Positions 16,018 through 50,721 of a stretch of 64,000 nt of DNA are shown in pieces; position 1 is the first letter of the stretch; the number at the start of each line of letters is the position of its first letter. The position numbers and the translations under genes are program-made. Source of the stretch: Catajapyx aquilonaris (taxonomy: Eukaryota); assembly GCA_000934665.2 (NCBI GenBank), contig KZ538093.1, positions 1-64,000 of the forward strand. The letters are read 5' to 3'. The notes under the pieces were generated by a model, which was not told where the DNA came from, did not search any database, and saw nothing but the letters and a program-made list of their open reading frames with translations.

Positions 16018-16314
16018 CTGTAAGAATAAAAATCATATTAACAACTCGAAAATGACATTTTAAGTAATAGTTTCCACGATAAAAACCGACACTCCCGTTG
16101 TCTTCTGGAGACACATTTTTAATCCTAATAGATCACCAACGCAGATGTACCTCCCAGAGGATTATACGTGCGACCAACAAAAAATAAAAATATCAGGCGT
16201 GACACACCGGCAGGGCAGCACAAAAAGGTCAATTTGAGTCGCACCTCGCGGCTTGATGGACCCACCAGTGATGTTCTGAGATGGCTGACGACCCTGCCGG
16301 CTGACCTCACTTAC

Positions 16315-16470
16315 TTCACTTCTTTCCTCTCCCGGAAGGCTATGCCGAGATTATGGCAAAGATGTTCCGTCGCCTGCCATGAGAACAAAGACGCCGCTTA
16401 CGAAAAGAATCCGCGGAGAAGCCAGCATTCCGAGCCTTCTACATTTTATGCCAGAGCTCGCTTTTAGTCC
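16315..16470 (-). promoter_or_regulatory. Probable proximal non-coding first exon/promoter of TANC/rols, with a 9-codon uORF
   Basis: Donor GAA|gtaagt at 16315/16314, 297 nt from the RING exon acceptor. An in-frame TGA just before the donor forces use of ATG 15994. uORF ATG..TAA at 16380-16351; CpG-rich; 5' boundary uncertain. Confidence 0.45.
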
Positions 16471-17704
16471 CAACTTACGGCCCATTCATGTCACTCTCCT
16501 TTAATTAATGCATAATATATGCCGTCAGAAAATACAGAGTACTTTATGGTATTTCGTGTACTTTGTGTTACTAAAGGCGCCTCCTCCTAACATTTCTTCT
16601 GACCAACCAATAATTTGTCTCCACAATGTTCATGTGTAATGTTAATTGAAAAGGATACGGACAGTTAAATCAAGAACATCGTAATGCAAACTTGTTCGAC
16701 TTGAATGTGCACGAGAATCTTCCTGGGGGGTCAACAATGCCTAACTGAGATTATTTTTTTGGAAGCCTTCCGCTATCCGGTATACGAGAGAATGCACTTT
16801 GTAGGCGAATGTTTACGTGTGCAGACAGCTCAGCAGATTCGAAATGAGTGCTTCACAAGCTGGCATTAAGTGCAATTATTATAACGTTCATATTATAACA
16901 GGCCTGCCTCCTATAATTGTTTCAAGTCACGTTTTCCCCCCTCATCCTACCGCTTTTGTTATGCGTAACAACAAGTGATCGAATCATCAGTGCAATTACC
17001 TGTCAAACGTGCAGCACCTCATTTGCTAGCATTACGTAATTTTTTTCGCAATACATAACAGTATTCAGTAGTACCTATAGCATCACAAAACTAGGGCTTC
17101 ATCTTCATTTTGAGAACGTTCTTGTTCAGAAATAATTGCACTTCAAGTATTACGACACTAATTGAATAGGCACCAACAGGAAAAAGCCATACACAAGACA
17201 TGAGCGGTGAATAAAAATGAAATACGCGCCCTTTTACGAGCCACGAGGCTTCGATTCGAACCATCAATTATGGGAGGCCACACTGAAGAAACTCCCTTTG
17301 CGTAGAAAGTGCTTCACGACCCTCTCTTATTTTTTTTGTCACCACTTGAACAGTACACGTCCCATGCACCATGTTGATTAACTGAACCCTAACAACTTGA
17401 TTGTTAATGAAGAGTTCGCTTGATTCTACGTTCCCTACTGGGTGTCACGTTACATGGGCTGAGACTGATTTGCTGGTGACACCCCGACAGCTACTCAATG
17501 GTTCACCAATTTCGACGAAAACCGGACTCCGCACCTGGTCTGAGAGGACAGTGACATTACCGTGCAACCGACTGAATTATTCAAGAGGTCGACTTTCAAA
17601 TTCTACCCAATTTCAGCTGTCAATGTGTCAAATGAACGAGTGATTGACAGATTCGCTGGTGTCCTTTGCTGGTCATGTATGACGTCCTTCGCTCTTCCAC
17701 TCAC

Positions 17705-17882
17705 CATGCCTGTGGGAGCCTAAGAAATACCAAAAGCCACATGCCTGTACGGTACGTAACTCTGGTGCCACACCATTCTCGTGTACGGTCCATTGCTCCT
17801 CCCCATCCGAAGGATTAATTCGTTCACAACCGCATTTTTTACGCAAGGCTAACCAGAAGAAAGCCTGAAGCCACTCATTCAT
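17705..17882 (-). CDS. Candidate alternative first coding exon (MNEWLQAFFWLALRKK...GSHRH|D, 59 aa)
   Basis: ORF 17673-17882 contains a consensus donor G|gtgagt at phase 1 after codon 59. Confidence 0.45.
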
Positions 17883-20800
17883 TTAGTTTCTCCAGCCATT
17901 TGCATTGCTTTTTCTTCGTGCCCACCGCCATGGGCGTCGACCAATCAAAGCGTGAACATGAATCAATCAAATGGTCCTGAGGTACGGGGGGCACACTTAC
18001 TAATGCTGGCCATTTACTTCCAAGGTTTCACATCGCAGCTGAGCTTGCACTGCAAACAAGGAGCCATAGTTTAAGAGTGGAAGCGTGAAAAATAAATTTT
18101 GTCGAATCAAAGTTCACTCCAGCGTGGGCGGTAACCAATCACGATGGGCTTTGTCTCGCAGATATAACACTCAACTGGAAGTCCAGACATTTATTGCGAT
18201 TAGGAAGAACCCGACAACAATAGGCTCTGTCATTATAAGTGAATAATAAAATAAAATAAGAAGTTATTTTATTTGACACGCTCTTAGAAGATGGCTCTTC
18301 GTGATCCAACATCTTCCATTTGTTAAAAGAGGCATCATTACACCTCCTGGGCCGACTTTTTCCCCATCTGACATTATTCTTGTCCCGTTGCGTGACTGAC
18401 AGAATTAGTCTCACACGAATAGATTCTCACGAAACACCTGCTGACATGACCTAAATATGGCTCCACACCTCCCAAATGGAATCCTCAACAATCACCATTT
18501 AGGACCATTTGACCATAGTTGTACATTTCACGCGGGCGTTCAAATTACTCACGACCAATCGACTTGCCACGCTTTTCTATGGCTTCGAATAAGGATGCCA
18601 CACCATTTTGTTTTTATTTACAGCCTTGTGGCCATTTTGAAGCAATAAAAAAATATTTCCATGCATATTCGTTGTCATCATTTTCAACCGAATGTCAGTG
18701 TGTCGTCATCTTAACTGCAACGTTGCATCAGCACACCCACGTGACAATTGCACTTACCATCTGCTCCACCTACTATAGAGTACCGGTAACTTATATGGAG
18801 CGAAGTAATTCGCAAGAGTATGGCCCGTAGAAGACGAGCTTTACTTGTCCTCTTTCAAATATTTACAAAAGTAAAGTGCTGGTCATTGCGATGAAAGGAA
18901 AGAAAAGAAGTAATTCGTGCGGACCACTCACTGTTACTTTCATCTTCTTGCATGGAAACGCTCATTTCGACCCGACACAAAAAGCATAAATAAAATATAC
19001 GATGCAGAGAAGAGCCAGAAGACTTTCATCCACCGTTTGTCTCGCTCTTTGTCGTTTGCCTGGATTTATGTCAATTGTAATTTTTTCTGCCCTCCCACCC
19101 CCTGCCTCTCTCTACACACACCACCACCCAAAATGGATGTAAAAAATTAAAAGGAAGATCCCACGATCTTTTAGTGTGTACCTGTCACGCTCTGACTACA
19201 GATGCCCACACAAACATGAGACCTCTCCCGACCTCTTGAAGTGTAGGAACAAACAGGGCCATCAATCAACAAGACTAAAAGCTCGTATACATCCATACAC
19301 AACCGTGATATTTTATTCCCAAATTCAACGGCATAGCGCACTTACGCAGTTACTTTTACGTGTAACCATCCCAAATCAGCCACTGTCTGGCTTACAGTTA
19401 CAAAAAAAAATGGATAGCGACCAACATCTTAACAGATTTTAATATTTAAAAATATACTCAGCCCATTCTTATAAATGCATAAGAACGTCAACTCACGGTG
19501 AAGGCATACTCGATAACAATGCTGAGGTCGGTGTTGTGCATGTGGAATTTCACTGACAGCAAAATAAGATTAAGCTAGAGGCAACTGCACCGAGAACGTG
19601 ACTTCTACACTTGCCTGAAGGGACAAAATTTCAACTCATACTCCTGGTGAAATTATAATGGGAACAGCCCCATGATATCAGAGTGGAAGAATCCTCAAGC
19701 TATAGCTTATGAACAAGTAGTGAGAGATGACTAAAATTATTGACGCGCCCATAAGCAGGTCAAGCAAAACCAAGAACATTGGGAAATAATCACATCTTTA
19801 TAACAGCTTTATACTGCAAGATTTATCATATGTGACACCATGCATAAAAAGAAAAGCCATATATGGACATATCTTCTTGCTGCATGCCATCTAGTGAAAC
19901 TAAAATGTTGTACAGCAACTGTTGGCATAGCTTCAATTGCCTCTCACGCTCATTGCTGTGTAATAAGAATTCGAAAGCTTCGTTGTCGATGATAATGAGT
20001 GTCTCTTTTTTTAGTAGTAGGGGTAGAGGAAGGTAAAGCACATCCTATCCATCAGCCAAGGATAAACTCCTACGCAACAGCTCCCAACCCATACGCACCT
20101 TAGTTTATTCGACTAACATTCCACAACAAAGTTCAACCTGATCAGAATTCACCACGAGTCCTTTTTACCCCAAGTCTCATCAAAGACACTGTCCCAAGCT
20201 TGAAAATTACGTGACTTTCATTTCCGAGACTATTGGCGTATGTCGTTACGACACCAAACCCTTCAGGTTTCCATACAAGGATATCTGAGCAGTTGTCCAT
20301 ACTATCCCTCTCCCACCTCCTTTCTGACCCACTGCTTATTGAATGAGTAAAACCAGCTTCTGGAAACCGTAGCATTCCCCAAATTGGCAATGTTTAGGTT
20401 CGAACCTTGCGAAGTGTTAACTCATTCACAAAACGAGTCCTCCAGAAGGTCTCAAGTGAAAAACTTACGATATCAAGATACCCCCACAACCTCCACATAT
20501 CTATATCGGCTTCAGGCTTATCCAGTATAATTCTGGGTCATTGCATCCCCTAGACAGCGAGGTTTCAGGTATCCTTGAAGTATGGGGGGGGGGGGGGNGG
20601 AAACCACCTTCGATAATAATATGCCTATACCGGTCGGTAGTTTCTCCACTTATTAAAGCGGAAGTTTTCCCCCTGCCTGGACCACATCGTGGGAGGTCAC
20701 CAGTTTCAGGTCACCTTTGAAAAAATCAGGGGGGACCAGGAGAGAAACATGTGTAGCCTGCTGCGAAGCTAATCTGCACTAGAAACGATTTCCACACCCA

Positions 20801-22677: not shown

Positions 22678-22741
22678 CGATTCTACCCAATTCATATACA
22701 TAGCCCCCAACAGTTTGGTTAACTAGTTTCCAGATAAACAT
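22678..22741 (-). CDS. Candidate alternative first coding exon (MFIWKLVNQTVGGYVYELGRI|D)
   Basis: acgATG at 22741, 21 codons + 1 nt, donor G|gtatga, phase 1; CpG-rich, purine-rich leader immediately upstream (22742-23050). Confidence 0.5.
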
Positions 22742-24362: not shown

Positions 24363-24590
24363 GTGTTGCATAACTACTGTATACGGTGCGGTATCATGCA
24401 TGTGCTCTTGAATATTGATTGCTGCCTTCAAGTTGTCGGAAGCTACGCAGGAAAATGGCCTCATCCTGCATGAAATCAGTTTCACACGCAATTGATGTAA
24501 CAGCTACTGCGTCAAGTTTTCACGGGGGTACGCAATTATAGCCATTCACGGTAATAACCACACCTGCTCCCTGTATAATCACGCTAATGC
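24363..24590 (+). repeat. Dispersed direct repeat, copy A
   Basis: Shares aaaatggcctca..tgcatgaaatcagtttcacacgcaat.gatg..gcaattat.gccattcacgg.aataaccac..aatcacgctaatgc with 41177-41425. Confidence 0.8.
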
Positions 24591-29402: not shown

Positions 29403-29763
29403 GCCCCCGGACACTGCCCCTACAATCATATCTTATCGCCTGCCGAGGCGTTTTGCATGAGGTGCTCACCTTAGAGCGCCATGAGACCTTTCACTGCTAT
29501 ATTATGTGGCGACCCTACCGGATTACTCTGAACTTTATAGGTATAAAAGGGAAGCGCAACATTGGGGGACCCAACATGGTCGCCGGCGGCCATGTTGGGC
29601 CCGCATGTAGCGGCTTCCCTTCTACCTTAGTTCAGCGTAGTCCGGTAGGGTCGCCACATAATAGAGCAGTGAAAAGCGGTCTCATGGCGCTCTCAAGTGA
29701 GCACCTCATGCAAAAGGCAGGCGATAAGAGGGAGTGTCCAGACCTTAGTATTCTAAGACCATG
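29403..29763. mobile_element. Foldback (MULE-like) non-autonomous element with 10-bp TSD
   Basis: Direct repeat attacgggca at 29393-29402 and 29764-29773; nearly the whole element is an imperfect palindrome centred near 29584 (e.g. tcttatcgcctgcc / ggcaggcgataaga; ttatgtggcgaccctaccgga / tccggtagggtcgccacataa). Confidence 0.75.
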
Positions 29764-30835
29764 ATTACGGGCATAATTGTGGCATTTGCTCACAGGCTTA
29801 TCAGCAGGTTTCGGGAGGTGTGCTAGAAGCTTTTGACCCCTTATGACCTGACCTCGTAGTTATGCTGCACCTTTTCCTAGGGGTTGGGTGAAATCGGCAG
29901 TCTGACCGGAGAATCCTTTTAGTAGAAGTTGTGCAACCGGGTGTATAGACACACGTGTCAGAAAAACGTGGGGATAAATCTGTGCTACGCGCGTATCGTG
30001 CCACTCGCATATACGAAACAGAAAGTGCGAAGTTCGGTAACGTTGTAATAAACATTCCGAATCTGTCGGTGAAGTTATAATGGCCATGCTCAGTACTTTC
30101 AAAATTTTCTTCAAATATCACCGTTAAGTACCTCCTACAGGTTATAAATAATATTTAATTGACACTATGGGGAGCCCTAGGTTCGCAACTCATTACGCCC
30201 ACTTCAATTGGTATCATTACCGTAGTAGCACGAGCTTGACACATGATGGGACCGCCTATTAACGAACCTAAGTTAATTGTGTCGATACCGCAAGGTCATG
30301 ACTCTGCAAAATTCGCACACTTTGACCATTGCTCCCATAAGAAAGCTAACCTGCTTAGACCACATGTGGAGCGATTTTGTGATTTATCGGGTGTCCTCAT
30401 TAATTTTCCAATCCGATTTCCTCCTGTACTGAGGATGGGCGTCGTCACAAGCTCCATCATCAAGGCTGGCCACACAAAACGGGCTCAATGCTCCAAAAGT
30501 GATGCTGAAGGGGCGCGCCATGTTTGTGAACGGAGAGAAAGTGAATACCCCCGGCAAGACACTTAATTGTTTCCCCCACACCAACCGGTCACCGCCAAGT
30601 AAGGGTCACTCTCTAAAGTGGAACAAGCGTCCCAACTACGCAACCGCTTGATTCAATATGGACAGGCCAAATTAATTATATTGTTACGCCGCTACCACTT
30701 TGGCCTCGGAAAAATTTCTTGTGCTAATACTAAACGTCGTGTGTCTTACGCAACCTCAGCAGGTGAATGCCAATAGAGAGAGAAAAAACCCACAACCACA
30801 AATCGGATCTGACAGGGCAAAGGACAACGCGTTTG

Positions 30836-30891
30836 GTTCGATGGGGTCGGGGACGTCCCAACGCGTTGGGACGTCCCCGACCCCATCGAAC
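30836..30891. repeat. Perfect 56-bp GC-rich palindrome with no spacer
   Basis: gttcgatggggtcggggacgtcccaacg|cgttgggacgtccccgaccccatcgaac. Confidence 0.9.
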
Positions 30892-32537
30892 GTTGCAACG
30901 GTGTCGATATGTTGTGATGCGCCTCACTAGAGGGCAATGGCGTCTGGGTGGGCTCTTTTGTTGAGTCGTGGGACGGCCTGGCTCCGGGCCGGTCGCAATA
31001 AATGGGTTGCTCCGATTGTTGGACCCTGAATGACCTTGCGGGTCAGGAGAGCTGACCTCCCCCTCTCAATGTACGTTACTCATATCAGCAGGTACAGTTT
31101 ATTAGTTTCCGCCCCCAATGTAAAGGCGATAACGAATACAATAGACCTAGCTCCACCCTTCAGACATGTGCCTCATGTAATCAGTGCAATCTGCGCTTTA
31201 AGGGCAAATTTTCCGCAGTATACGATCGTACGATACGGTATTGTACACACATCTTTAAAAACAAGTCTTTCACCGTCCATCAGGTCCTCAGATGTCTGCT
31301 TGCAGATCTGGTTCATCACCTGTCCTTTTTGTCCCATACTGCAAGAAGCTTATTTGATTTCCAGAGACCCGTTCTTCCTACACCGTTTCCCACGCGTCTT
31401 GAAAAGGAAGGACCTAAAGCTTCCGGCCCAGTCCACACAAAGAAGCTCCCACATGTAAGTTTATCTCCCTTTTCTTCCCCTTTTTTCCAACCCAAGAAGC
31501 TCTGAGACCAGTTTAACCCTATCTGAGCAAGAATGTCAACAATCAAAGTCTGGCTTTAAAAGACACTTTATAACCAATCTTTACCTTATTTCTCAAGTAA
31601 AGGTCAGCTCCACCTTCATGAGAAAAAAAGAAGACCACGCCTTGAGAAGATAAAAGAGTGATGAATAGCAAAGTTGCGATAAACCTTTTTCACAATACCA
31701 GGTCTTCGTTAATTTACTGGCCAATTTGTGAAGGGCAAAAACGCAGCAAACAGTACAGGAGTGGGGGGGGGGGGGGGGNGGGGTTAGCCCACACTGGAAC
31801 ACAATACATTATGACTGCAGTTAATTCCGACGAGAGGAGAAAATAATTATAACGTACACCATGTCATGACGTGCGATCTCTATACCGGACATTTAAAAAA
31901 AATTCTTACCCATCGTCCTTAAATTATGACCCACTAAATTGGGTGTGAACATCCTTTCTTATCACGCCCACATCATTTGAACGCAGGTCTGGCTTTTCAC
32001 AAAATGGCCCAAAAAACCCTTTTAGGCTCATGTACCTCCGCCAGCTATAAGAACTTACAAGACGGTCAAACGGTCTGGTCTGTCAGGTTTGCACACGTGC
32101 ATCGGCATACCATGTGGTCGCAATCATTCAGGCAGTACAAGTGACCATCATGAGCAACAAAAAAAAAGTATTAGAGGAACCGAAATGTGTGAGGTCCAGG
32201 GATCGAACTCTGGACCCACCTTCTGCCTCTATAGCCATTTCGAATAATCCTAGCCTCTAGCAACCTTCGCTATTTACTGCCGAACTCGAGCCTCATTATA
32301 CCTGACCGTACTAATACCGAACCTGAACATAAACGCTACAGTCGTATTTCTTTTCCCCGTCCCCTTGTATGCGCTTCAGACAAAAAGTTCTTCACATTTC
32401 GTTCCAGACAACAGGATTCCTCTCGGGGGCCTCCCAACTTTGGACCCCGAATTAACCCACCCCGAGGACAAAACCGCTTTGTCGGAGGAATTTATAACCC
32501 CCCCCCCCTCCCCCCCTCCCCCAACAAACACTCCACC

Positions 32538-32612
32538 NNNNNNNNNNNNNNNNNNNNNNNNNNNNNNNNNNNNNNNNNNNNNNNNNNNNNNNNNNNNNNN
32601 NNNNNNNNNNNN
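32538..32612. other. Assembly gap (75 N) flanked by poly-C and low-quality-looking sequence
   Basis: N run. Confidence 0.98.
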
Positions 32613-33354: not shown

Positions 33355-33427
33355 TCGTATTAATGTTTGGATCCACTTTCTCGTCCAAATTTAAATGATT
33401 TTTTATATGGGCCACCCTTTTCTCCAT
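33355..33427 (-). CDS. Candidate alternative first coding exon (MEKRVAHIKNHLNLDEKVDPNINT|N)
   Basis: gctATGG start, 24 codons + 1 nt, donor A|gtaagt, phase 1. Confidence 0.4.
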
Positions 33428-36400
33428 AGCTAGTCACTCCTTACAGCACATAAGCTTCAATTATTCCTTAGTGCAATTACATCCCAATTACTTCTTTCTC
33501 CACGGAAAAACAATACAATTCGCACACTTGCAGAGCTGCCACCGAATAACCTATTGCACGTGGCCAAAAAAAAAATACATAGCAACTGTGATTACACTGG
33601 AAAGGCGAGAGAGAAAAAGGCTGGGGAGTAATGATGACAATCTGCGACCCAACTAGAATTGGGCACACTGAACGCCGAAGAAGAATAGTAAGAAAAAACT
33701 ACACACATTCCACTGCTGCTTTGCAATCCTTTTTTCTCTCCTTCCCTTCCAGTTGGGACCAACTTATCATGCTGGCAAGCAGACGACAAAAGGAGGCGTC
33801 CTTATCAGACGTTTGGTATATACTGAGAGAGAGGCAGCGAATGGCAATGGTACAGACCCCCCCCCCCAAAAAAAAAGTCTAATAAATTAATCATCCGATT
33901 GTTTCCGCACTGATTTACAGCCAGCCGGCAATATTTTTTAACCAACTAGGGGTCGTAAGATCAGGATTTATGATTATAGGCCTATTACGCCCTCTTGTGT
34001 ATGATCGCACTTGCACAAGTATGACTCACTCGTTGTCGAATATAAATATTTATACAAGCCTGCTTCCTAACCAATGCATGATAGCATTTCAAACATTTGT
34101 TTTCAAATTCTTTTTGGGGAAAAAATATATATATTAACAATGCATATCCCGTCAAGTCATTTTGAGTCAGGTTACTTGTCAACTTCTTCATGGCCCCTCT
34201 CCACCTTATTTCAATTGCCCAACTTCACCTTTACACCTACGCTCCTTTTTTTTTCTTCTCCTTCCAAGTGGAATTGATTACAGCCATCGATTCCTTTAGC
34301 AGATAAGCCCCAAATTCTTGTCAACAAGAAGCTGAAGGTGTACACACCTTTGTTTCCATCACTTTGATTAGGCGATACAACACGGACACTTATGGTATCC
34401 AAATCATCCAAATTACAAGCCAGAGAGAAAGCGGGCGTCAACCCCTGTAAGCTTCAAAACACGTTGACAAAACTTGATCCGGTACTGTATGACATTCAAT
34501 CCAACGTTATCTTCCCACCAGGTGTTATAATAATTGTTAAACCATTGATAATAAATCCATAAAATGCAGAAGCAGCCACACCCCCTTTGTTCAAGTGACC
34601 ATAAAACCTACTCATATCACTACTAGTGTAAAACAACATGCATTAATTTCAGCGGTTTCGATAGGAGTTTGGGGTCTCTCCAGCTTCGTCTCAGGTGTGA
34701 TTCGGTCGACTAACCACCAGGGTAACTCACCATCAAAGGTCCGTGGGCGCACAAGTAGCTGTAGCATAGTACCGAGAGTTGGTCAGGAGATCAGGTATCG
34801 GGTGGGTAGAACAAAGTGGTGACTTGTACAGGTCCACCGTATCCCCCTTGAAAAGGCGGTATGTGTACGTAGGGGGATAGGGGGTGAATCAACGTCTAGC
34901 TGTATAAGGATGTGACCGCTCATGGTCGAGCCTAACCGATGCTAAGTAGGAGGCAGTTGTGTAGTTGCATCACGCGCCTACATTATCATCATATCCCTCC
35001 CCACGTATCTCTTCATTCAGACTTCCATGTTGGGCCAGACCTCCTCTTTGGAAGATGTCATGCACTTCACGCGACATTGGGTTTGACGCCTATCTGCATG
35101 CCTTTTGCAGTTTTTTTTCCCACGTACGGTACCGCAGCCCATCCGCCTGGATACCAGCCAACCAATCCATTTGCATATATTTTATTGCCCGCCACATCTA
35201 CTCTTGGAAATAGTCACCGGTGGAATTGCACATTTGTCACTGCCGCCTTGCAATTCTGAAAAATTTCTAATGTAACACCGTAGCGGCCGGATCTTATCAT
35301 GAAGTCATGCTCTCAAGATGGTTAAAAAAAACCTGGCTGGCCAGACATGACCTAAGTGTTGATTATCTCCGGCAACGGCCTACACATCCCTGAATGATTG
35401 ATTTATCAGTCCAGAATTTACAACGGCTGGCACCCCCCCCATGTACAGTACTCCGCATGCGCCTCTACTGTTGTATATGGGCCTCGACACGCCGTTGTGG
35501 CCAGGCAGGTCAGGTTGTAAAGCATCGAACGAGTAGCATCAAAACGCCATAACGGATAGTGAACCCTGCGCCTGAAAATGGTCAGGTGAGGGCGTAGTTG
35601 AAGCCTGAAAATTATATAGCTAACCGGAGGTGATTAAGGCTCCACAAGTCCACCTACGCCTCCGCCAACACAGGTGCTTCACTGTTCATTTAGCTAATAC
35701 CCGCATGTGTTTTTATCTAGTTTGCGATTCTTTCGCACGTGGTGCAACCTCCCGCAGAGGTCATTGATTCTGATGTACCCACCTACGCGGTTTGAACCTG
35801 AGGACTTCGAACCCGTTCCTTTTCGGCTCTTGTCTGGGACCAGTCTACGGCACTTGGCTCGGACACCTCTGAGGGGGTACCATATTGAAGAAAACATCGT
35901 GTCTAGTCTTGCCGACAATCAATCAACTCTTAACATCCCGCCCACCTTTCGTATTCGATTATCCACAAGCTGAACGAGCACATATGTGAGAAGTATGTCC
36001 GGCCCTATGGTCTTTGATATACCGACAGTTTTCTCCAACTTGGTCGCCTTATCTGGGTGGCATCATTTTTATTCCCACGGTTGGACAACAAACGAAGCAG
36101 ACTTCCGGTGATACCGCGGCAAACGGGCAAAACATGCTTGTACTTACCATTGTACCACTGTCCAGCCGTGGCGGTCATCATGGCTTCGTAGAACACACGT
36201 GCACAAAACGGCAAACAAGGTTCATGCGTGCATTGCATACGGTTACGTCCACTGGTTTCGTACACACTGCCTTTGTCATGCACATCAAGGAGCTGGAACA
36301 TGCAAAAAGTGAATGCCAATCACATTTCAATGCAACTATCGATAGACATCTCAGAATGGGACTTCCTGCACTCGTAAACAAGGGAGTGGCTTTTTCCCGC

Positions 36401-39225: not shown

Positions 39226-39292
39226 CGGATTTGTCCTCTTTACGAGTCTTGCACAAGTTCCGGAATCCGGCTTTCAGTTCTCCAAACTTCAT
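39226..39292 (-). CDS. Candidate alternative first coding exon of TANC/rols (MKFGELKAGFRNLCKTRKEDKS|D)
   Basis: ATG at 39292 (gcgATG), 22 codons + 1 nt, donor G|gtacgt; phase 1 fits the RING exon acceptor (G+AT = Asp); lies in a GC/CpG-rich island (~39230-39620). Confidence 0.6.
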
Positions 39293-41176
39293 CGCCTTTC
39301 CCGAACTCACACTTGTCACCGCGCAGCCCGACCTAGACACGTCCGATCACAACGGCTTCACAGCCCACACTGGCCTGGCCGGGGCGAGCTTAGCCTTCCT
39401 CCGGTTCCTCGCCCCAAGCCATGCCCTACCTTCAAACCCACCCCCAACCTGTCCTCCCCAGCAGCATAGACGCCGACCCTTGTCCCTTCCCGTAGCTACT
39501 CCTCCTTCTTCAGAGAGAAAAAAAAGGCGCCAGGAGGGTGAGAGGGATACCCTCAACCTTCTGGAGGGACTCATTTTGGGAATCCGGTGCACGGGGGAAT
39601 AACAGGCCGGTGCAAGGGACACTTTGTTCCAAAAAAAAATATTCGGTCAAACAATGTTCGCAGATTTGTGGATGAAATTTTTTGGAAAATGTGGACGATA
39701 TGGTATAGTGGGCAAAAAATATTTATGTGAATACTCCACCCATATATGTAGCAGGGTGTTTGTTCGGGTGGGGTTGTTAGGCGATGCACGGATAATCCGC
39801 ACTCGGATAATCGGGAGTGCAGTGTAGATTTCGGAGGGGGGGGGGGGACTGCGTACGGCCATGATTATGTAGATAATTATGAATTCCCCTCCTTGATTTA
39901 CATTTGAAGACCTGTAATTGGCTCCTTTGTTTGAACCGTCAGGAGTAAATAACCCACTCCATATTCGTGTTATAACGCGTTAGTTCAACTGCTCAAAAAT
40001 GTAAGGTTAATTTAGCAGGCCAAAATGAAAACAAACCCCTTCAGCCATGGAATTTCGCAAATTGGCCCTCCTCACTCGGAATCAAGGCCATACATGAAAT
40101 ATCGTTATAATCTACAGAAATCTTCTGCAATCTATGACAATTCCTGGAAATCCGCTCGCCGGCTATCATGCTACTCCAACTCCACTCATGAACTAAAGAG
40201 GGCAGCATGGCATGTAATCCAGCTGGAAATTATATACTCTAAAAATATGCTCATATTAAACATTACCTAGCTGAGTGCACCCATTTTCAAGTGCGGTACA
40301 TTCCTAACCATTTGCTCAGCAATACTTATTGAAGCGTGATTTCACTTTTGAACACGCTAACCGTACCTCCGAGCGAGAAATAAAGATGAGGAATGATGGT
40401 CGGATCATTCCATATCTAATTGAGTAAGATTCTGATGGGAATAGCCGGCAATTACTGAATGCATGTGGGTAGTAGAGTGGATGAACCAGTCGAACGATTT
40501 GTCGCGGGAGTTGGCGTGAGAATTAAAACACTTGCAGGTTTAGTCCAACCACTTCAATTGGCAGCATTTTGAAAAATCCAACACAACCAGGTTTTATTCG
40601 ATAGAGAATGACGTGTGTTTTTTTTTAAAGAGACGCTGTTGAATATTACTGAGCCGAGTATTATTTTTGGGGGGGAAACCAGTTCCATTTCTTTATCACA
40701 CTTTAGGCTACAGTATAATACATACTTCTGCAAACAAAAATCCTTCGAGTTTTCTGTTGAAACTAGTTACAAAGGAACACTTTCCGCTTGCATGAACTTA
40801 GCCCCTGTATATACAGTATAGAAACATGCGACGCTTATTCAACAAAGAAGGTGCACGCAAACGTAACACTGTTCCATTATGTAAACAATTAACTATTCGG
40901 GCAGAGCGTCGGTGAAACTCGGGATTTTAGAGTGCTACATTTTGGGAATAAGTAAATTCATTTCCTGGTGAAAGTGCAAAATTATCACGTGCCAGAAAAC
41001 TCGATGTTACGCTGGATACAGCAGTGATTCTCACATTAGGATTAGGCTACAGCGCAGCGTTCTCTCCTGGCTATAATAGTTAAGGCGAGTGCAACTCATA
41101 GTTGCTCCTTTATTGTCTTACTGTCTATATTATATACTCGTATGAAAATAAATGTGATACCACACAACAACCAACT

Positions 41177-41425
41177 TGTTGCATAACTGACTATCGTATA
41201 AACAAGTCTTGATTATAAGCCAACATATTAATTGCTTCCTCTATAAGTTATCGGAAGTTATACATCAAAATGGCCTCAACCAATGCATGAAATCAGTTTC
41301 ACACGCAATCGATGCAACACCACCTACGTAAAGTTTCCACGTGGGCAAGAGCAATTATTGCCATTCACGGCAATAACCACCTGCTCCTTGTCTTCCAGTA
41401 GTCAGCATATCAATCACGCTAATGC
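41177..41425 (+). repeat. Dispersed direct repeat, copy B
   Basis: Collinear diverged match to 24363-24590. Confidence 0.8.
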
Positions 41426-42361: not shown

Positions 42362-45300
42362 TATATTTAACCATGTGTAGTGTCTGGAAATTTCCGAAAA
42401 AAATACGCATTATCCCATTCCATGAGCGAGTTACATGCAAGTCAATATTTTCAATCTGTGTTTATCAACATTTATTTGAAAACACGTAATGAAAATATTT
42501 TTCATGCGCTGAGTTTGCCCAAACACATCATTCATCCACCGAATGTGTTGTGTTTTCAAATATGAATGCTTACTGCAGTTGGCAGTTGACAATATGAATG
42601 AGGCCTATTCATTGCGACATGACATCACCATACAGGTAGCCAAATAGCAAATACAGACTTGCTTACTCCCCAGGAGGTAACTCGACCACCGAGTCATTTT
42701 TTATTATCTTATTTATGTTTACTGTAACACTATACCTTACACTTAATCTAACTTCCTCGTGCCTTACTCCTCAGGCAAGTCTCGAGAGTGTGAGTAACCA
42801 GGCATTAATGCAGAATATGAACCTCGGTATATATTTCGTAGCAGTACCGATCGCATTAAGGTTTCACTCCACGAAAGTGAATTTAGGCGGGCCTAATGTA
42901 GTTTCTGAATCCAAAATCTAAAACGAGATTATCCTTCGCCAGAAACAATGATAGGAAAGCTTGAGATGCTCTTGTGGAAACACTATCATTAGCACCGCGG
43001 CCCAGTACTTAAGGAAGCCCCATTTTTGTACCCCAAAATCTTACCCCAAAAGACCACCTAAAACTGGTGAAAGTAGTCCTTTTTCAGCAGCTACGTCCTT
43101 GATAAATGGGGCTTGTTCTTAGTGGGTACATACAGTGGGCTCTAAAACTGAGTGTTACACAATAATGTCTGCACGAGGGTTAAATCAGAAGTCATGGCCA
43201 ATGTTTTATTACTGCTGAAATACCCTTATAGAACTCGGGTGGGCTTGGTTGTCCAGTGCTATCAAGTAATGCTGACAAATGGCACTACAGCAACAACCTC
43301 ATTAGCAGCCCTATTAATAATAGACACCGCTTAGTGTGTGGCTATTCAAATAGCAAGACCCTCGGATTGGAATACTGCAGATATTGTACTGGATGGCCGT
43401 GGGTGGGCTTTTTGATGATTCGTGAAGCAATGTTTGTTTGGATCCATGTCTTGAAACATATTCTAACGGCTCATCTATAATCCTGCCTTTCACTCAGCCC
43501 ACGCTACAGACCACTCCATCCATTCACCACCATCTCGCAATTTATTCTGCCCACTCGTTTTAATGATTCCATAAAACCCAACGGTATATCAATTCCGAAA
43601 AGGTTAACTGAGCCATGTGTGTGTGTTTTTTTTAAACTTGTGGATACTGCAATTATTATTGATGATTTCTCCAGAAGCAGCAGGCCGCAAACCTTGAAAC
43701 GGCAGCAGTGTGTAGACGTCGAAAGTCGCGATAAAACACAGCAGTTGGACAAGAACAAGTTAAAAGAGAAAGACAAAAAAGGGACAACTCCAAGGTGAAA
43801 TTCCTCGACCGTCCTACATATCGCATTGTCTAAAATTGTAGCGCTTTAATTGACGCCAAGACGTAGCAGTTGGTGAAAAGAGACAATTGTACGGTACAGG
43901 ATTGAGGACAGGTATAGAGTATCACCTCAGTCGTTGATCACTCTTTCACTTTCTCAACATCCAGCGATTTTTCAAAGTAGGCTACTTACTATCCAGCTAT
44001 CCCATTTTTATAATTGGCCATTACGCATACCGGTTCGAGTGTTAATTATCCCCGATGTGCAAACACAATGATGGAAACGGGGTGTCCAGGTAAATACTGA
44101 AGATGCAAGAGGTGGACATAAAATATAGGAAAAAAGGTAGGTAGGGCAAGGAGCATACATGCTTCCCAACTGTGAGAGACTGGATTCTGAGTTTTTTGGG
44201 GGGACCCTGCTGGCTAGCTAATCGAGCAAAATGAAGGAAGCGCGTGTTGTGGGTGCCTCAAGTGCATCATCATCACCTGTCTGGTCCCCGCTACTTTTAT
44301 TCCCACTTTATCATCATTCTTGCCCATTTGCCAGGAATTTCCTCGCTTCTTCCTCTTCCCTGCTCTGTGGGGACTCTCACGCGCAAATCAACGTCAACTA
44401 TCTTCTGTCAACGGCTCCCCCACCTTCCATAACCACTATACAAAAGAAACTTATGTCTGATTTTCCTTCCTATGTAGAAAGTCAGGAAACACCAAGAAAA
44501 TCGGGTCAGAATCAGCTCCTTGTCACTCCTACCCCAGCCTTATGAGCTTACTTGCTCCCACCCTTAGGCGAACGTGCTCCGGAGCGACACCAGCGCCAAA
44601 TCGGAAATCATCTTAGGCCTAGAAAAATGCATTGTCGCTCTCTCAAGAACCCCCCCCCCCCCAGCTATAAGCGCGTCTAAGATGTTATGGAGCAATAATT
44701 CAGTTTTAAAGTATGGGCGCTAGCTCGTAGTTATGCGACAAAGAAACGAGAGGCTTAATTTACCTACCGGCCTAAAAGAAAGACGAGGAAAAAATTGAAA
44801 GTGGTCCCATAGCGCAGGAGGGATTTGGGCAAACTTTTCTAAAAGCAAATGGGATGAAACTTGGTTATTCGAAAGGAATGAAAAAAAAAGTGCGATGGTG
44901 GGTCGTCTGCGAGATCGTAACTTATGTAATTCGGTTTCGAAAGTCATTCCTCGAACCCTTTGATGTGTAGAGTTACCGTTTCTATTCATTCTGCTCCTTA
45001 ATCACGTTTAATTAACGCTGACTAACTTGAAATAGATTCCGATCTGAAACATCCCAAATGAAAGAGGAGTCCCTTTTTTTTAGTCGTCGCCCTTTGCATA
45101 TAGGTTGCACCTAATATGCAATTATCTGATAGCACTAATGCCTTTTAATTCAATTCCCAGATAGTAAAGGGAAAGGGCTGATTGGATTAGCCGCCTCTTG
45201 GTACATACAGCTATACTAGATTGCTTGATTATCGGAAGAAATCTGGGGCATTTGAAGGGTATATACTACACGGCGACAAATATTTCACTTCGTAGTTACA

Positions 45301-48300
45301 GCCTGCTATTTTATTTATGTGTACGCTTCTCTGTATCAAAACAAAAACAAATAAATTTGGGATCCGCTCTTGTACGCCATTCTACGCATATATGCTTGCA
45401 GAAATTCAAGCTCGTGGACCCGATTATTTTCATATTTATTTGAATACCCTATACTCAATGTCCCCTCAATGTACTCAATGTATTGCAGCTTTAGTCATCA
45501 AAACTGGTATACATTTCTTTACATAAAACGTTCAAAATATATATTCAGCGAGTGACAGTGCTCATTATACATTGCAGAACATTTACGGTCGCTCAGTCGT
45601 AGTCGATGGCCGTATACTTGAGGTATAGGCGTAATAAATGTAAAGAAAACAAAGACGTTCTCGCAGGATTTACACCGAGGGCGGTTAAGAGAGAGTCTGC
45701 ACGACCACATTGTATGTCAGAAAACAAAAGCGCGAAAGCCATTCGTAAATATTGCAGTTAACCGCGATCACCTTGTCACACACGATTATATTCATTACAG
45801 TCCGCTACCCACTCCCTCAACCCGAAATTCAACTATTCGCAAATAGTGTCACTTTTATAAGCTGGAAAAGTGAAATGTATTGTTCCGCACATCAGCTCAC
45901 GTTGTGTTGTGTATTACATCAGTGTTCAGCCTTTCAGTTTTGTGCAGATATTGCATAGTATTCACTGAATATAGTAGTCTCGTGCTTCGGGATGCATTTT
46001 ATGAACGAGATGGTTGCTCTTGGAGACAAGTCTCAAGATTCTTTTCTCCCTCCAGTTAATTAGTTCTGCATGCAGGTTCCACTCAGCAACATTCCTTTGC
46101 GGCGGAACATTTTCAGATTTCATTAGTATACTTGGCGCAGACTAAAATTTGCACAATTTTCTAAAGTTTGTGCATAATGGCCCCCTTTGCCCTGCAACAC
46201 TGGCCCAGGGAAAACTATCGTGCAGGACCCGTTTTGCAAGACAGTATTACCGGCTATCTGAAGTGCATCGTAAATAACAAAAAAAAAACAGCCCTCCCAA
46301 CAAAATGCAAATGTCTATATTCGGCCATTTGTCAGCATAAGTGCAAATAAGTAAGTGTCCAAAGCACATAAATGACAATGTACTGGCTTTAAATTGATTT
46401 GGCAGTTAAGTCTTAATTTGACCCTACACAATAGTAAGCGATTATTTTCCCCAGTCATTTGATCTGAGGACATTCACCATATAATCTGCCTCGTTAAAAA
46501 AAATCTCGGGTCATATTTCTTAACGTGCTGATACCTAGGGCCAAGGACAACTACCGCTTACGCTCTTGTTTGATGCCGGTAAAGTTACTGGACTTACGCA
46601 TCGACACGTAGCGAAAAGCAAAGCAACAAAGTGTGTCCAATTCACTCACTTCATATATCACCCAAGACAATCGTTACTCTTGACGTTCTTGACAAGACCG
46701 ATAATGAATGCTGGAGTACTTAATTGAAATCACGGTTGGGCGTGAGCGCTTCCATAAATAGATACCATTGCTTGTTATAGGCCCACTTCGCGGAACACTG
46801 TCCAATTTTGTACCTGTTCAACAGCGTAGACAGATTCGTCTGGATTCGTAATATTAGAAATATATTTCCTGCTTCATAATAATTGCGGCTGACAGGATAT
46901 CCACAGGGCCAACATTTTAATCACTGTGTCAGCAGCTAGGAGAAAAAAGGCTTATCATTTTGACGGCTTGATAAAAATGTCAAAATAATATCTGCAAACA
47001 ACGAGAGGCGCCTGCATCGAAGACGCCATGCAGGAAATGTGTATGCAGTTATCAAATCACGGGATATCGTCTCCGTCTACGTTATTTCGAAACAATATCG
47101 GCTCCTTAGTGTAAACTTGTCTGGACATGCACTACTTGTAGACTACTATCTGCTTCTGCACACACAAAATTAATTGCCTGATAAAGGTTCTATAAAAGGG
47201 CGCACTATCATGTTGTATTTGAACTTATAGTTTTTTTTTTGTATTTTACACAGCAACAATAATTGTGACAACAACAGATTTAATAACATGCACTTATGAA
47301 TATTTATACAGGATCAAGAGCTGTATGATCGCTAGCGGTATTCAGCAACGTCCACTTTAAAGAATTAAAGAGTAATTAGTAGGAAGTTGATTTTCTAACC
47401 CCATTGACACTTTCACTTGAAAAGAGTGAAGACTAATAATTAATTGGTAGGTATATCCAATCCTACAACCCTCTTTTTTCTCACGGATATATCGATGTTC
47501 CTGACGATATAAAAGTTTAGAAATTATCAGTTGTGAGATTTCATCACAGACAGATTAATTGTACGCCCATCTCTTTTGATAACTCGAAAATCTTGAAAAT
47601 CCGGTGAAGGCAAAAATTTCGAAACAAAAACACGTTCTCACGAATTTCAAAACGCAACTTCCATAAACAGACCTTGCGTAATATAGCTAATACGGCGTCT
47701 CAATGCTGTTGCAAAAATGCCAGTCGCCAGTTTGTGAATGAAACTCCAGGTCAGAAACACCCTGTCATTCACAACATTGGTATCGGGACGCAAGCAAGCT
47801 TCAAGGCAGAGGTCACCGCCAAGGCCTGATAACAAGGAAATCTCTCTTTCTTTTTTTGGAGTGTCTGCTTTTTGTGTCTCATGGGCATGTTGCACGCAAG
47901 AATTGCATGCTTTGTATTCAAGTGGTTTTTGCACAACTTACAGTATATCACTAGACAATAATCGCCCAAGCATTATACGCTCTGTTCAGGTACACTTATT
48001 ATAATTTGTACTCTAATTGTTTCTTTTTTATCAATAATAACTTGTGCATCACAAGCATACCCATGCATCTATACAAAAGTAGACAACATTATTGGAATGA
48101 AAGACAGTATTTATTAACCTCACTTTTCAATTCCCAACATTGCAACATTACAAGGTGAGACTCGAGTCATTATAACCAAGGACTGAAAATAACATGAGAG
48201 CTGTGATATGTACGAAAGTTGACATGTTTGTGTAACCAAAACACGAAATGTTTCCACTCTTATACGTATACTTTTTTGCCAGAGACCTCGTTCTTTCATA

Positions 48301-49650
48301 ACAAAAGCTTGTTCTCCTACGCACCAGCAACTTCTCATGCAAATTTAACGTCCGTCTAAAGTAGATAGGAAGAAAATGATCCCTCGCCACCATAAAAGTC
48401 ACCTAATTAGACCAGGGCATATTAAGGGATTAATTTTTTAATTTTTTAAAATTTCTGAGCGTGCCTAGGAATGTAATAGTTTGTGCTTGGTTTCCTCAGA
48501 CATGGCTTTTCAAACTATATACACCTCAGACGAACTATAATCCAAACTACTTGCCACTATCAGATTCTACAAAAATCGATGCATCCCATGATGCTCCTGG
48601 CTCCGAGCCTGTGACTGTATTACTGGATTACATATGCTAATGCAATAACTTTTCACGTCACATTAGCAAGTCACACTTTACGCCTATTTTTCCAAAAGGC
48701 AACATGTCAATGGCTACTCGCCAGCGACCCTAAAATTGTCAGCTATTTCCTGCTTAAAATGGTAATTGCAAAAGTCTCCTCTCACTCTCCCCCTTCCATA
48801 CCCAGCACCACAATAATAAAAAATGGATAGTGTCCCCCTTGGCGTTACGAACCCCCTAATCAAGTGACCCCAATTTTCTCTCCCACGAGTTATTATATAA
48901 TCAGCTTTGCGTCTAAACCCGAGGGGGGGGGGGGGGGCCCNGCTCTGAAAATGTTCAAGTAGAAGCCTACCCCATGGTGAATGAACCCAGAAATTTTAGC
49001 TGCCATAGAACCATAGACTCGTACCTTGCTCACAATTTTGTTTTTTGAAGATTGCGTGTGAAGGAGTAATTATTATGCCACTGAAAATGGAAGCCTCCAC
49101 CCTAAAGAAACTGCCGACTTGGCTAACTAACTATCGACCTTTTTGCACGTGTACCACCGACAAACGAGCTCCTAAGCAATAATTTCTAAAGAGAGGTTGA
49201 AATATCCTGTGAAGTCAGCAGCTAGATCAAAGAGAACATTTGCATCAAAGAGAAAAATTTTGTCAAAAAAATTTTTTTAAAGTCTCTAATGCAATAAACT
49301 TATGTTTCTGATGTAATCTACAAAATTTTTGAAGTATTGTGCGCTATTTCCCATGAAACGGAGGCGATTATCATCAGGGTTGAATCGTGACATGTGCTGA
49401 GGCTCAACACAAAAGCGTGTGAACGGTTGAATCACGTCATCACTAGATGAACAACGTGTCAAAAAAAAAACATGCCGACAGAAAATGAAGTCGGAAATTA
49501 TGTTTACACTTATTATTCGCTTTTTTCTTATGTGGCAGTCACGAATAATTACTTGAGAGGCTCTGGGAACAACCCAATCCCTTTTGGCGAGAGTGCATGC
49601 TTCAAAAATAAAGCATTTCACAACAGGAATATTCAAAAGGCCATTGTAAT

Positions 49651-49897
49651 TGAACCATGGAATCCGAAAACGGGCTAAGTCCATATGGATGCACAGAGAG
49701 AGGGGGGGTCAAAGGCACCGCTCCAATTCCTCACTCGTAGCTGGTATTAGATTCGTGACACCCTGTATTGACAAGTGCACCTAGCCCGAGTTTGATGGGG
49801 CTTCGATGCTCCGTTTGGCGTACAGTGAGGCTCAGAACAACAAGTGCTTAAGTGAATTTTCGAATGGACTTAGCCCGTTTTCAGATTCCATGGTTCA
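49651..49897. repeat. 34-bp inverted repeat pair, probable internal part of a DNA-transposon relic
   Basis: tgaaccatggaatccgaaaacgggctaagtccat (49651-49684) vs atggacttagcccgttttcagattccatggttca (49864-49897), 1 mismatch. Confidence 0.7.
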
Positions 49898-50693
49898 TAT
49901 TATGGGAGTGTATTCCGGGCATGACTTGACTAAATACGATCGCATCAAACTTGCTTCTTCTGTAGCATCGTGTAGGTCTATTCTCACGTCAGCAGAGTGA
50001 GTTCTGTCAACCAAACAACCACTTGACCCATCACAACAAATGTGAGTATATCAAAAGGGAAGCAGCTGTGAACATTGACGGTACCATTTCTCACCCACAG
50101 TTATCCACTTACAAAGCATGAAAGGGGTCAGTAGACGGCGGTTGATCATATGACACAAGAAGGATGTCATCCGATATAGTCAGGTGTATATTGACACAAG
50201 TGACAAACATTAATCGGTTGTCAACGCATCCGGGACTGAGCAGGTGACATTTCCACCCGAGATATTTGTCATCCTTCCAAAAATGGTCGCCCAGAAATTT
50301 GAGCACTTCCAACCATGATGACTTCTGGAAAGCGTGAAAGTTAGCGACACTATTCGAAAGTTGACACCTGAGTGGTCCACCCGGATTTCTAGATTCAGCG
50401 TAGGTGAACGATGGTGCTCGGGATTTCCCTGAGAAATGACATGTAGGCGACTGGGTGGTGGTCATTTTGAATCCCACCTGTCCCAAGTCACAATTTGGGT
50501 TTGGGCACTTCAAAAAAAATGCAGACTGTGTACCAACCAAGTCAAGGACCCTATGAGTGGGAAGCAGCACATGCTGAGGACGAGACGGGCAAAACACCAA
50601 AACCCGAATGAAATACGCCCACATCCACCCACACATTGCCAGACCCATGTGGGTTTTTACTTACTCTACACACTACAGGTTGCCTCACCTTAC

Positions 50694-50721
50694 CTTTCTC
50701 CATCGGACACTCGGCCTCCAT
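50694..50721 (-). CDS. Candidate alternative first coding exon (MEAECPMEK|D)
   Basis: cacaaATGG start, 9 codons + 1 nt, strong donor AAG|gtaagg, phase 1, CpG-rich surroundings. Confidence 0.3.

Follow-up and report, generated by a model that had tools for sequence, protein, structure and literature searches.

The window, by which we mean the whole stretch of 64,000 nucleotides analysed, carries on its minus strand what is, judged by protein similarity, an arthropod-type orthologue of TANC2/rols (rolling pebbles). The first constant exon encodes an N-terminal RING finger with a ...CPLC signature (translation of exon 16015-15848) and spans positions 15847 to 16017, with a phase-1 acceptor and the phase-1 donor AAG/gtaggc (a slash marks the splice boundary here and below). 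The remaining coding region, deduced from tblastn, splice inference and Pfam, occupies positions 4647 to 15846 and comprises P-loop, TANC1 AAA-lid and wHTH, ankyrin and TPR exons. When compared with proteins, the RING exon matched 384 of 389 candidates at E<=1e-3 (best 4e-21); those with a name were insect TANC2/rolling pebbles. Insect TANC2 also provides the nearest full-length homologues, at about 52% identity over about 1280 aligned residues, across which the window protein is colinear with them (tblastn of three homologues, and alignment). The representative-library search with the RING exon returned no relative with a partial identity above 88%, and no full-length protein closer than the insect ones.

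The features by which a TANC2/rolling pebbles orthologue is recognised are all found: a RING finger, a TANC1-type NTPase/AAA-lid/winged-helix region, and ankyrin followed by TPR repeats. The AAA-lid and winged-helix (PF25520, 1.1e-33; PF25521, 4.8e-15) and the ankyrin repeats (Ank_2, 8.9e-19; Ank, 1.4e-17) score above the Pfam cut-offs, while the RING models on the RING exon (E=0.005), AAA_16 on the P-loop exon and TPR_2 on the repeats after the ankyrins (3.2e-5) remain below theirs. The inferred introns of the constant region measure 59 to 2257 nt, and the 10 inferred donors of the gene itself score 4.2 to 12.6 bits on a 9-position weight matrix of approximate frequencies.

The acceptor of the RING exon reads ...ttattcttacag/AT at 16018/16017 (AG at 16019-16018). 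As the preliminary description of this DNA had it, the acceptor is in phase 1, the first two exon bases finishing a split codon. This codon is Asp in nearly all homologues, and it is exactly 5' of this Asp that the homologues diverge by isoform. Because the first base of this codon lies outside the exon, isoforms that keep the sequence D-L-x-A-x-R-K need an ATG and one base from upstream. The frame 5' of the internal Met of the exon was likewise correctly said to be open: it runs through the acceptor to an in-frame ATG at 16036-16034, with the Asp kept. ORFs that cross polypyrimidine tracts are a frequent artefact of gene prediction, and many such fragments are found among the homologue N-termini. 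A search of metagenome contigs for a spliced transcript, with an exact 43-nt pattern of the RING exon, gave no match.

The junction motif is present in 93 full-length homologues, 10 of which have at most eight residues before it. On its 5' side the sequences split into classes, among them '...RPGSGLSLSVL/D', '...DDPFWPNIAT/D' and 'EEILWSDDE...W.Q/D'. Insect TANC2 isoforms thus fall into at least two conserved N-terminal classes, all breaking at one x/DLAAIR junction, and isoforms of a single species may belong to different classes (X6 versus X2 in Tribolium, X2 versus X3 in Anoplophora), an assignment that rests on the source names of the protein matches. For Drosophila rols, PMC4169254 describes two promoters that give transcripts with specific 5' exons, in agreement with the alternative promoters that the earlier description had named. 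Alternative 5' exons joined to a constant RING exon at a phase-1 junction are, then, a trait of the family, and some such exons are to be expected in the window.

Eight segments upstream of the RING exon had been put forward as alternative first exons. All eight exist as described: each starts with ATG, stays open and ends one base into a codon before a GT. On the minus strand they lie at 17882-17705 (59 aa), 22741-22678 (21 aa), 33427-33355 (24 aa), 39292-39226 (22 aa), 50721-50694 (9 aa), 18013-18001 (4 aa), 18965-18932 (11 aa) and 59826-59814 (4 aa). Joined to the RING exon, the segments ending at 17705, 22678, 39226, 50694 and 59814 would give GAT (Asp), and those ending at 33355, 18001 and 18932 AAT (Asn). 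Their donors score 12.1 bits (59814), 11.3 (50694), 10.1 (17705), 7.4 (39226), 7.2 (33355), 6.7 (18932), 6.0 (18001) and 4.5 (22678); a further donor, at 16315, scores 8.6.

As a set, these candidates are no more than what chance provides. On the minus strand of positions 16018-64000, 142 GT sites score at least 6 bits, and an ATG-open frame precedes them in phase 0, 1 and 2 at 43, 39 and 38 sites, respectively; the corresponding counts are 102, 99 and 105 for the 393 sites of at least 4 bits, and 16, 14 and 9 for the 40 sites of at least 8 bits. Phase 1 is not enriched among the ATG-open frames of this region, which agrees with the caution given at the outset that some candidates were probably false. 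Since ATG-to-GT segments of the right phase occur at about a quarter of donor-like sites, whichever the phase, lists of this kind need an independent filter.

Nor are the candidates related to each other. Sensitive blastn among nine candidate regions yielded only four short matches (22-41 nt, E 0.009-0.025); one of them, between the 35-kb and the 33-kb region, was checked and is not colinear with the exons. Self-comparison of the 48 kb gave six non-self alignments, none of them at any candidate. The mutual paralogy of variable exons that marks a tandem array is absent here, and on this point the likeness to protocadherins and UGT1A suggested earlier breaks down. Pfam detected no domain above cut-off in 55 ORFs of the 16-64 kb region, so that no transposon or second gene is seen there, and searches for Rfam families, tRNAs and tandem repeats gave nothing relevant.

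Codon-usage scoring was uninformative for the short peptides. Likeness to known N-termini was assessed in two ways. In a class-free Smith-Waterman comparison against 250 controls, applied to six listed peptides (the five main ones and that of 18932, the two four-residue ones being left out), only 33355 exceeded control ORFs (p ~0.03). Junction-anchored matrices were applied at phase-1 GT sites for five N-terminal classes, with p-values that are modest after five classes and a design that followed a first look at HMM matches. Two outliers emerged: the FWPNIAT class peaks at 33355 and the RPGSGLSLSVL class at 44740. The three other classes ('LWSDDE/WWDE') gave nothing, their scores being reached by 48, 217 and 90 of 300 simulations. 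As a positive control, the class matrix finds in one metagenome locus (L003) a class-A exon ending TAG/gtaagt with 27.6 bits, 8.8 kb upstream of the RING exon; in the upstream flanks of eight other loci the highest scores are 5.6 and 7.2 bits. HMMER profiles searched against the window were not significant (class A, E=2; full-length FWPNIAT, E>=2; class B, nothing), and tblastn of 64 homologue N-termini against it found no right-strand match with E<0.01, the best on that strand being E=0.44 at 33397-33353.

Among the listed candidates, the best supported by these comparisons is the putative first coding exon MEKRVAHIKNHLNLDEKVDPNINT at 33355-33427 (donor CGA/gtaagt). Its FWPNIAT-class score of 13.7 bits compares with 2.4 for the next best site and with 4.8, 10.2 and 7.2 in the controls; none of 120 shuffles attains it, and 2 of 300 Markov simulations do. 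In the class-free comparison, 2.8% of the 250 controls reach its score. Against it, the RING junction would carry Asn in place of the Asp of nearly all homologues, and the Trp of the class is missing.

The second outlier was not on the list. The segment RPVGKLSLSFL at 44740-44773 (minus strand) resembles the 'RPGSGLSLSVL/D' class and ends with T/gtcgca, a phase-1 GT; the acceptor-like sequence ttttttcctcgtctttcttttag lies directly 5' of it. At phase-1 GT sites it scores 18.9 bits (next best 7.2, controls at most 6.7), which none of 120 shuffles and none of 300 simulations reach. Over the whole window in six frames the second best is 9.4 bits, and 1 of 40 shuffles reaches the score, as do 0.4% of the 250 controls in the class-free comparison (p ~0.004). 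However, its donor, at -6.5 bits, falls far below the 4.2-12.6 bits of the gene's own, the codon at the junction would read TAT (Tyr), and no ATG occurs within 60 codons.

A further unlisted sequence, the short ORF MTSSKEEVWPNMEV ending in a stop codon at 35017-35061 (minus strand), is the top match in the window to the 'MPS..FWPNIAT' class (15.0 bits, reached by 2 of 25 shuffles; Smith-Waterman score reached by 9.6% of controls). It has no phase-1 donor, its sole GT (GAA/gtctga) being in phase 0 with 0.0 bits, and HMMER was not significant on it. We also considered the 33.4-kb and 35.0-kb motifs as tandem duplicates, and rejected this because they share no colinear DNA similarity.

The remaining candidates differ in context. 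The 59-codon ORF at 17705-17882 (minus strand, donor ATG/gtgagt) is probably a chance ORF rather than a coding exon. Its codon usage looks non-coding (log-likelihood of -7.2 bits, where about +13 is expected for 59 codons at the gene's own 0.22 bits per codon), its score is equalled or exceeded by 79.5% of null ORFs, Pfam gave no match and 33% of controls reach its Smith-Waterman score. The segment at 22678-22741 (minus strand), with the weakest donor on the list (TCG/gtatga), is unsupported as an exon, as 87% of controls reach its Smith-Waterman score. Two others, 39226 and 50694, may have a promoter-like context, although this is circumstantial. The candidate MKFGELKAGFRNLCKTRKEDKS at 39226-39292 (minus strand, donor CCG/gtacgt) shows no likeness to known N-termini, 41% of controls doing as well in the Smith-Waterman comparison, and has a codon-usage score of +2.3 bits, reached by 12% of null ORFs. 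Directly 5' of it lies a G-rich, CpG-dense patch, 39293-39560 (GC 0.61, 16 CpG, minus-strand GC skew 0.34), which may be a promoter or 5'UTR. No other upstream window is as GC-rich as the 300 nt preceding the ATG of this candidate, and one of eight candidates is expected beside such a window with p ~0.1 (post hoc). The candidate MEAECPMEK at 50694-50721 (minus strand, donor AAG/gtaagg) is the only listed one with a TATAAA within 200 nt, at 50810-50805, 89 nt 5' of its ATG; with 22 TATAAA in the 48 kb, finding one near at least one of eight candidates has p ~0.5 (post hoc). Its peptide does not resemble known N-termini (36% of controls score at least as well by Smith-Waterman). The donor at 16315 (GAA/gtaagt) is indeed non-coding, as had been noted, its phase-1 frame meeting a stop at once; it would close a putative leader exon, 16315-16400 on the minus strand, 297 nt 5' of the RING exon and within a CpG-rich zone.

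The question arises as to where transcription starts, and here base composition was considered. CpG o/e shifts from 0.33 to 0.79 at about 14,750 (2 x dLL 175). CpG depletion begins some 1.2 kb downstream of the RING exon, the coding region having an o/e of 0.33, so that the sequence 5' of the first constant exon is unlike the gene body in this respect. Against distal first exons, the unmethylated appearance of 16-64 kb could be a sign that transcription in the germline begins beside the RING exon. A first scenario, which we consider unlikely, builds on a single proximal promoter: transcription of the main, germline-active form would start some 0.1-2 kb ahead of the RING exon, with the 16315 leader exon or a 5'-extended RING exon, and the start codon would be either the intronic ATG at 16036-16034, in frame with the exon (MIFILT-D-L-D...), or that of the internal Met. 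The distal ATG-to-GT segments would be chance, and positions 18-64 kb intergenic or regulatory. Such a promoter would agree with the CpG o/e of about 1.0 at 15751-17250, with the open, Asp-keeping frame through the acceptor, with the short N-termini of some homologues mentioned above, and with introns of 297-2914 nt, which would suit the intron sizes of the gene. However, ORFs through polypyrimidine tracts are commonly gene-prediction artefacts, and the two conserved-class matches sit at 33 and 45 kb. Moreover, in human genes H3K36me3, and body methylation with it, starts only after the first intron, which would likewise place the CpG boundary at the first of the constant exons.

The strand skew also speaks against a proximal start. 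Minus-strand GC skew is strongly positive over the 23 kb upstream of the RING exon (0.113 at 16-39 kb), then 0.064 at 40-49 kb (p=0.008 for an interval chosen post hoc) and -0.002 at 49-64 kb. The main change point, at 39,517, is reached by 0 of 300 block permutations, and candidate 39226-39292 lies just downstream of it and of the GC-richest patch; a second one (48.9 kb) is not significant (52 and 93 of 300 block permutations). According to PMC2927911, the sense strand of transcribed introns in vertebrates has a positive GC skew, which is near zero in 5' flanks, and the sign found at 16-49 kb is the one expected on these vertebrate data for the sense strand of transcribed introns.

Alternatively, the gene might have one distal first exon (39226-39292 or 50694-50721) and a long first intron, with no alternative usage and with 33355 and 44740 as coincidences. 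We regard this as quite improbable. The 39.5-kb change point does adjoin the GC-richest patch, a TATAAA and an 11.3-bit donor do coincide at 50.7 kb, each of the two exons would restore the Asp, and the class matches are not significant by HMMER. But the precedent in the family is of two or more 5' exons, simulations and controls seldom give junction-anchored matches such as those at 33355 and 44740, and the skew is still positive at 40-49 kb. We hold in similarly low regard the possibility that the gene's actual 5' coding sequence lies in one or more exons beyond 64 kb or in an assembly gap, no listed segment being used: runs of N do occur at 32538-32612 and 57082-57203, and the list is at chance level, but the skew is about zero past 49 kb and the class matches fall within the window.

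We find the balance roughly even for the explanation that we prefer, namely that the RING acceptor is joined, as in insects, by a few alternative 5' exons, two to four being the likeliest number. Each would presumably have its own promoter, all would be joined to the acceptor at 16017, and the outcome would be one RING/NTPase/ankyrin/TPR scaffold with different short N-termini. Against this, a first intron of 17-35 kb would have 8-15 times the length of the longest of the gene's other introns. In this scheme 33355-33427 would be one real exon, and a second exon of conserved type, or the remnant of one, would end at 44740; 39226-39292, behind its GC-rich, G-skewed patch, and 50694-50721, with its TATA and strong donor, are possible promoter-proximal first exons, and 17705, 22678, 18001, 18932 and 59814 would be chance ORFs. 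The isoform array initially proposed thus survives in part: the architecture is known in the family and 33355 resembles known N-termini, but the list overall is at chance. A full multi-promoter array, with at least four first exons (at about 50.7, 44.7, 39.2 and 33.4 kb, and perhaps 16.3 kb) providing different short N-terminal tags, seems rather doubtful to us; if it were true, the skew steps from 0 to 0.06 to 0.11 and the CpG boundary would be footprints of promoter architecture in bare sequence.

If the preferred explanation is confirmed, the rols design of Drosophila, with two promoters and alternative N-termini, would reach a lineage about as distant from insects as decapods are, and at least one N-terminal class ('RPGSGLSLSVL') would be older than the split between that lineage and insects. 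This would be of use for gene annotation, and for studying the role of short N-termini, for example in the tissue-specific localisation of a myoblast-fusion or synaptic scaffold.

In the clustered protocadherins and UGT1A, several 5' exons with their own promoters share one constant acceptor, and whole domains are encoded by the variable exons, which are paralogues in tandem. In contrast, the candidates in the window are mutually unrelated and would add 1-25 residues only. What we describe is probably a known trait of the family, with two to four exons here, rather than a novel array or a new principle. Closer are the predicted insect TANC2 isoforms X1-X6, whose N-termini differ and break at the same Asp before L-A-A-I-R, some having at most eight residues; the window protein is only about 52% identical to the closest of them, and its class matches are partial (Asn or Tyr for Asp, and one very weak donor). 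Drosophila rols (rolling pebbles/antisocial), with rols7 and rols6, belongs to the same family and has the same RING, ankyrin and TPR parts as the window gene. According to PMC4169254, two promoters place specific 5' exons onto common downstream exons and the intron after exon 1 contains regulatory elements; only two forms are described there.

The minus strand of the window carries a TANC2/rolling pebbles (rols) orthologue. Its translated exons (about 4.6 to 16.0 kb) match the Pfam models of the TANC1-type AAA-lid (PF25520, 1.1e-33), the winged helix (PF25521, 4.8e-15) and ankyrin repeats, and match TPR and P-loop models below their cut-offs. Their alignment to insect full-length proteins is colinear, with about 52% identity across about 1280 residues; identity is 49% to a decapod-like protein and 43 to 48% to other proteins. 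The most 5' recognisable exon, 16017-15847 (-), encodes a RING finger and is matched by 384 of 389 candidate proteins at E<=1e-3, the named ones being insect TANC2/rolling pebbles. Over most of its length, no protein closer than about 76% was found in the protein collections searched, and the exact RING-exon pattern had no match in the metagenome contigs searched. Directly 5' of this exon lies ttattcttacag, and the exon's first two bases finish a codon begun upstream, so that it is in phase 1. In homologues the junction codon is almost always Asp, the first residue of a conserved D-L-A-A-I-R-K-L-L (x-L-D-A-V-R-K-V-M in the window), and divergence by isoform begins directly 5' of it. It follows that the acceptor is real and that at least some isoforms translate the stretch of the exon lying 5' of its internal Met. 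Splice inference places five introns of 59 to 73 nt (9736-9673, 9534-9474, 9301-9241, 9006-8932 and 5481-5419) beside introns of 0.5 to 2.3 kb; a first intron of 17 to 35 kb would be a strong outlier for this gene.

The junction motif was present in 93 full-length homologues, whose N-termini form recurring classes ending at the same Asp: '...RPGSGLSLSVL/D' (beetles, bugs, a cricket, wasps, a lacewing and a mosquito, with a '...SLSFL' variant in moths), 'MPS...DDPFWPNIAT/D' (bugs, stick insects and a locust) and 'EEILWSDDE...W.Q/D', with moth and mosquito counterparts. Ten of the 93 have at most eight residues before the junction. By source names, a single species can have isoforms from different classes (Tribolium X6 and X2, Anoplophora X2 and X3); alternative 5' exons joining the RING-exon acceptor are therefore a family trait, not a novelty. 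Whole TANC-like ORFs also occur on four mRNA-like metagenome contigs of 4.6 to 5.3 kb (L009, L013, L015 and L018), two of which, L009 and L015, begin MPSETRQ.GLPPARASLPS.... Judging from the 'MPSE' start common to these two and the insect FWPNIAT class, this type of N-terminus may be older than insects.

The preliminary description had proposed that an array of alternative first exons feeds this acceptor. Its eight ATG-to-GT segments, with donors at 17705, 22678, 33355, 39226, 50694, 18001, 18932 and 59814, and a non-coding donor at 16315 were all recovered in place and in phase 1. The proposal names the right kind of arrangement, since the family works in this way, but the number of exons was overextended. 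The listed segments, taken together, do not exceed chance. Using a nine-position weight matrix with approximate frequencies, we counted 142 donor-like sites of at least 6 bits on the minus strand of 16018-64000, and an ATG-initiated open frame ended at 43, 39 and 38 of them in phases 0, 1 and 2. The corresponding counts were 102, 99 and 105 of 393 sites at 4 bits or more, and 16, 14 and 9 of 40 sites at 8 bits or more. The ten inferred donors of the gene itself span 4.2 to 12.6 bits with the same matrix, so no candidate is excluded by donor strength. The sequence features are real, yet individually uninformative. The 59-codon ORF at 17705 scores -7.2 bits with the gene's codon usage, versus about +13 expected, and 79.5% of random open frames score at least as high; 22678 has the weakest donor of the candidates. 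Segments 18001, 18932 and 59814 are too short for testing. No Pfam domain above cut-off was found in 55 ORFs of the upstream region.

The question arises as to whether counterparts of the N-terminal classes lie upstream of the RING exon. Neither tblastn with 64 homologue N-termini nor HMMER profiles of the classes gave anything significant in the window. Position matrices of five class tails, whose design followed an initial inspection of the HMM output, were then scored at each minus-strand phase-1 GT lying 5' of the RING exon (1670 to 1750 sites). For the FWPNIAT class, the best site was 33355 (tail DEKVDPNINT, CGA/gtaagt) with 13.7 bits; the runner-up had 2.4, and phases 0 and 2 of the same sites and the plus strand reached 4.8, 10.2 and 7.2. 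None of 120 shuffles attained this score; two first-order Markov simulations out of 300 did. The site is without the Trp of its class, and its junction residue would be Asn. Across the whole window, the 'MPS...FWPNIAT' class is best matched by a short ORF, MTSSKEEVWPNMEV, ending in a stop codon (35017-35061, minus strand). This ORF, located 1.6 kb 5' of 33355, lacks a usable phase-1 donor and could be a relic or a coincidence.

For the RPGSGLSLSVL class, the best site was a segment not listed earlier, RPVGKLSLSFL at 44773-44741 (-), followed by T/gtcgca at 44740, with 18.9 bits (runner-up 7.2, controls at most 6.7), a score not reached in any of 120 shuffles or 300 simulations. It also came first in a six-frame scan of the window (second, 9.4 bits), where 1 of 40 shuffles reached its score. 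Its donor scores -6.5 bits, there is no ATG within 60 codons, the junction residue would be Tyr, and an acceptor-like pyrimidine tract precedes it; the segment could represent an internal exon with weak splicing, an exon that decayed recently, or a coincidence. The remaining three matrices gave nothing, their top scores being reached in 48, 217 and 90 of 300 simulations. As a positive control, the ant-like metagenome contig L003 (L003:1-1200 and 10021) yielded MAPPDRSPRPSSGLSLSVL, a first coding exon of the RPGSGLSLSVL class ending TAG/gtaagt, with 27.6 bits, 8.8 kb upstream of its RING exon and preceded by a long (GA)n tract; across eight other loci, the matrix maxima in the upstream flanks were 5.6 and 7.2 bits. 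In a class-free Smith-Waterman comparison with 81 distinct homologue N-termini, the score was reached by 0.4% of controls (for each peptide, about 250 open tails ending at GT sites in phase 0 or 2) for 44740, 2.8% for 33355, 9.6% for the ORF at 35 kb, 33% for 17705, 36% for 50694, 41% for 39226, 44% for 18932 and 87% for 22678, which shows no similarity to known N-termini by this test.

A serious rival, or an additional promoter, is a start proximal to the RING exon. The CpG observed/expected ratio is 0.33 at 1-14,750 versus 0.79 at 14,750-64,000 (single change point, 2·dLL = 175), and about 1.0 at 15,751-17,250; the depleted domain also extends past the last coding exon, over 1-4.6 kb. The ratio thus places the start of the historically methylated body about 1.2 kb 3' of the RING-exon acceptor, and the sharp boundary suggests mosaic, gene-body-type germline methylation in Catajapyx aquilonaris. 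Methylation in an oyster climbs sharply past the start site and remains high along the body (PMC4378273). Read in this way, the boundary points to a germline start at about 16-17 kb. Reading through the acceptor keeps in frame an intronic ATG (16034-16036) that precedes it by six codons, and an unspliced proximal transcript would therefore still encode the whole RING protein. The boundary could equally be that of the first constant exon, if a long unmethylated first intron lies in front of it; in human genes, H3K36me3 starts after the first intron.

On the minus strand, GC skew falls from 0.113 at 16-39 kb to 0.064 at 40-49 kb and -0.002 at 49-64 kb; the gene body has 0.043. Block permutation firmly supports the change point at 39,517 (reached in 0 of 300) and does not support a second one near 48.9 kb (52 and 93 of 300). 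In vertebrates, introns have positive sense-strand skew and 5' flanks about zero (PMC2927911), a pattern that we tentatively carry over to Catajapyx. The first change point coincides with the stretch of highest GC in the upstream region (39293-39560; GC 0.61, skew 0.34), which is also CpG-dense and G-skewed and lies immediately 5' of candidate 39226-39292; the chance that one of eight candidates would lie there is about 0.1. In donor strength, candidate 50694-50721 ranks second (11.3 bits), and a TATAAA precedes its ATG by 89 nt, which is weak evidence because 48 kb contain 22 TATAAA.

Taken singly, 39226 is somewhat less likely than not to be a real exon, 33355 slightly less likely still, 50694 and 44740 are each rather unlikely, and 17705 and 22678 are each very improbable. 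The odds are about even that 16017 receives two or more alternative coding 5' exons from within the window. An exon could be hidden in one of the assembly gaps (32538-32612, 75 N; 57082-57203, 122 N), which have G/C homopolymer runs alongside, and base errors close to them are possible; four single N also occur.

Palindromic self-matches were found at 29431-29729 (316 nt, 82%) and 30836-30891 (perfect, 56 nt), the latter in the most CpG-dense 300-nt window (30701-31000, 25 CpG), and a 39-nt inverted pair at 49647-49684 and 49864-49902. The only dispersed direct repeat found in the 48-kb upstream region, 169 nt at 80% identity, joins 24412-24574 and 41225-41391. No paralogy was seen among the candidate regions, and on this count the suggested likeness to protocadherin- or UGT1A-type arrays fails and the TANC2/rols locus stands apart from them.
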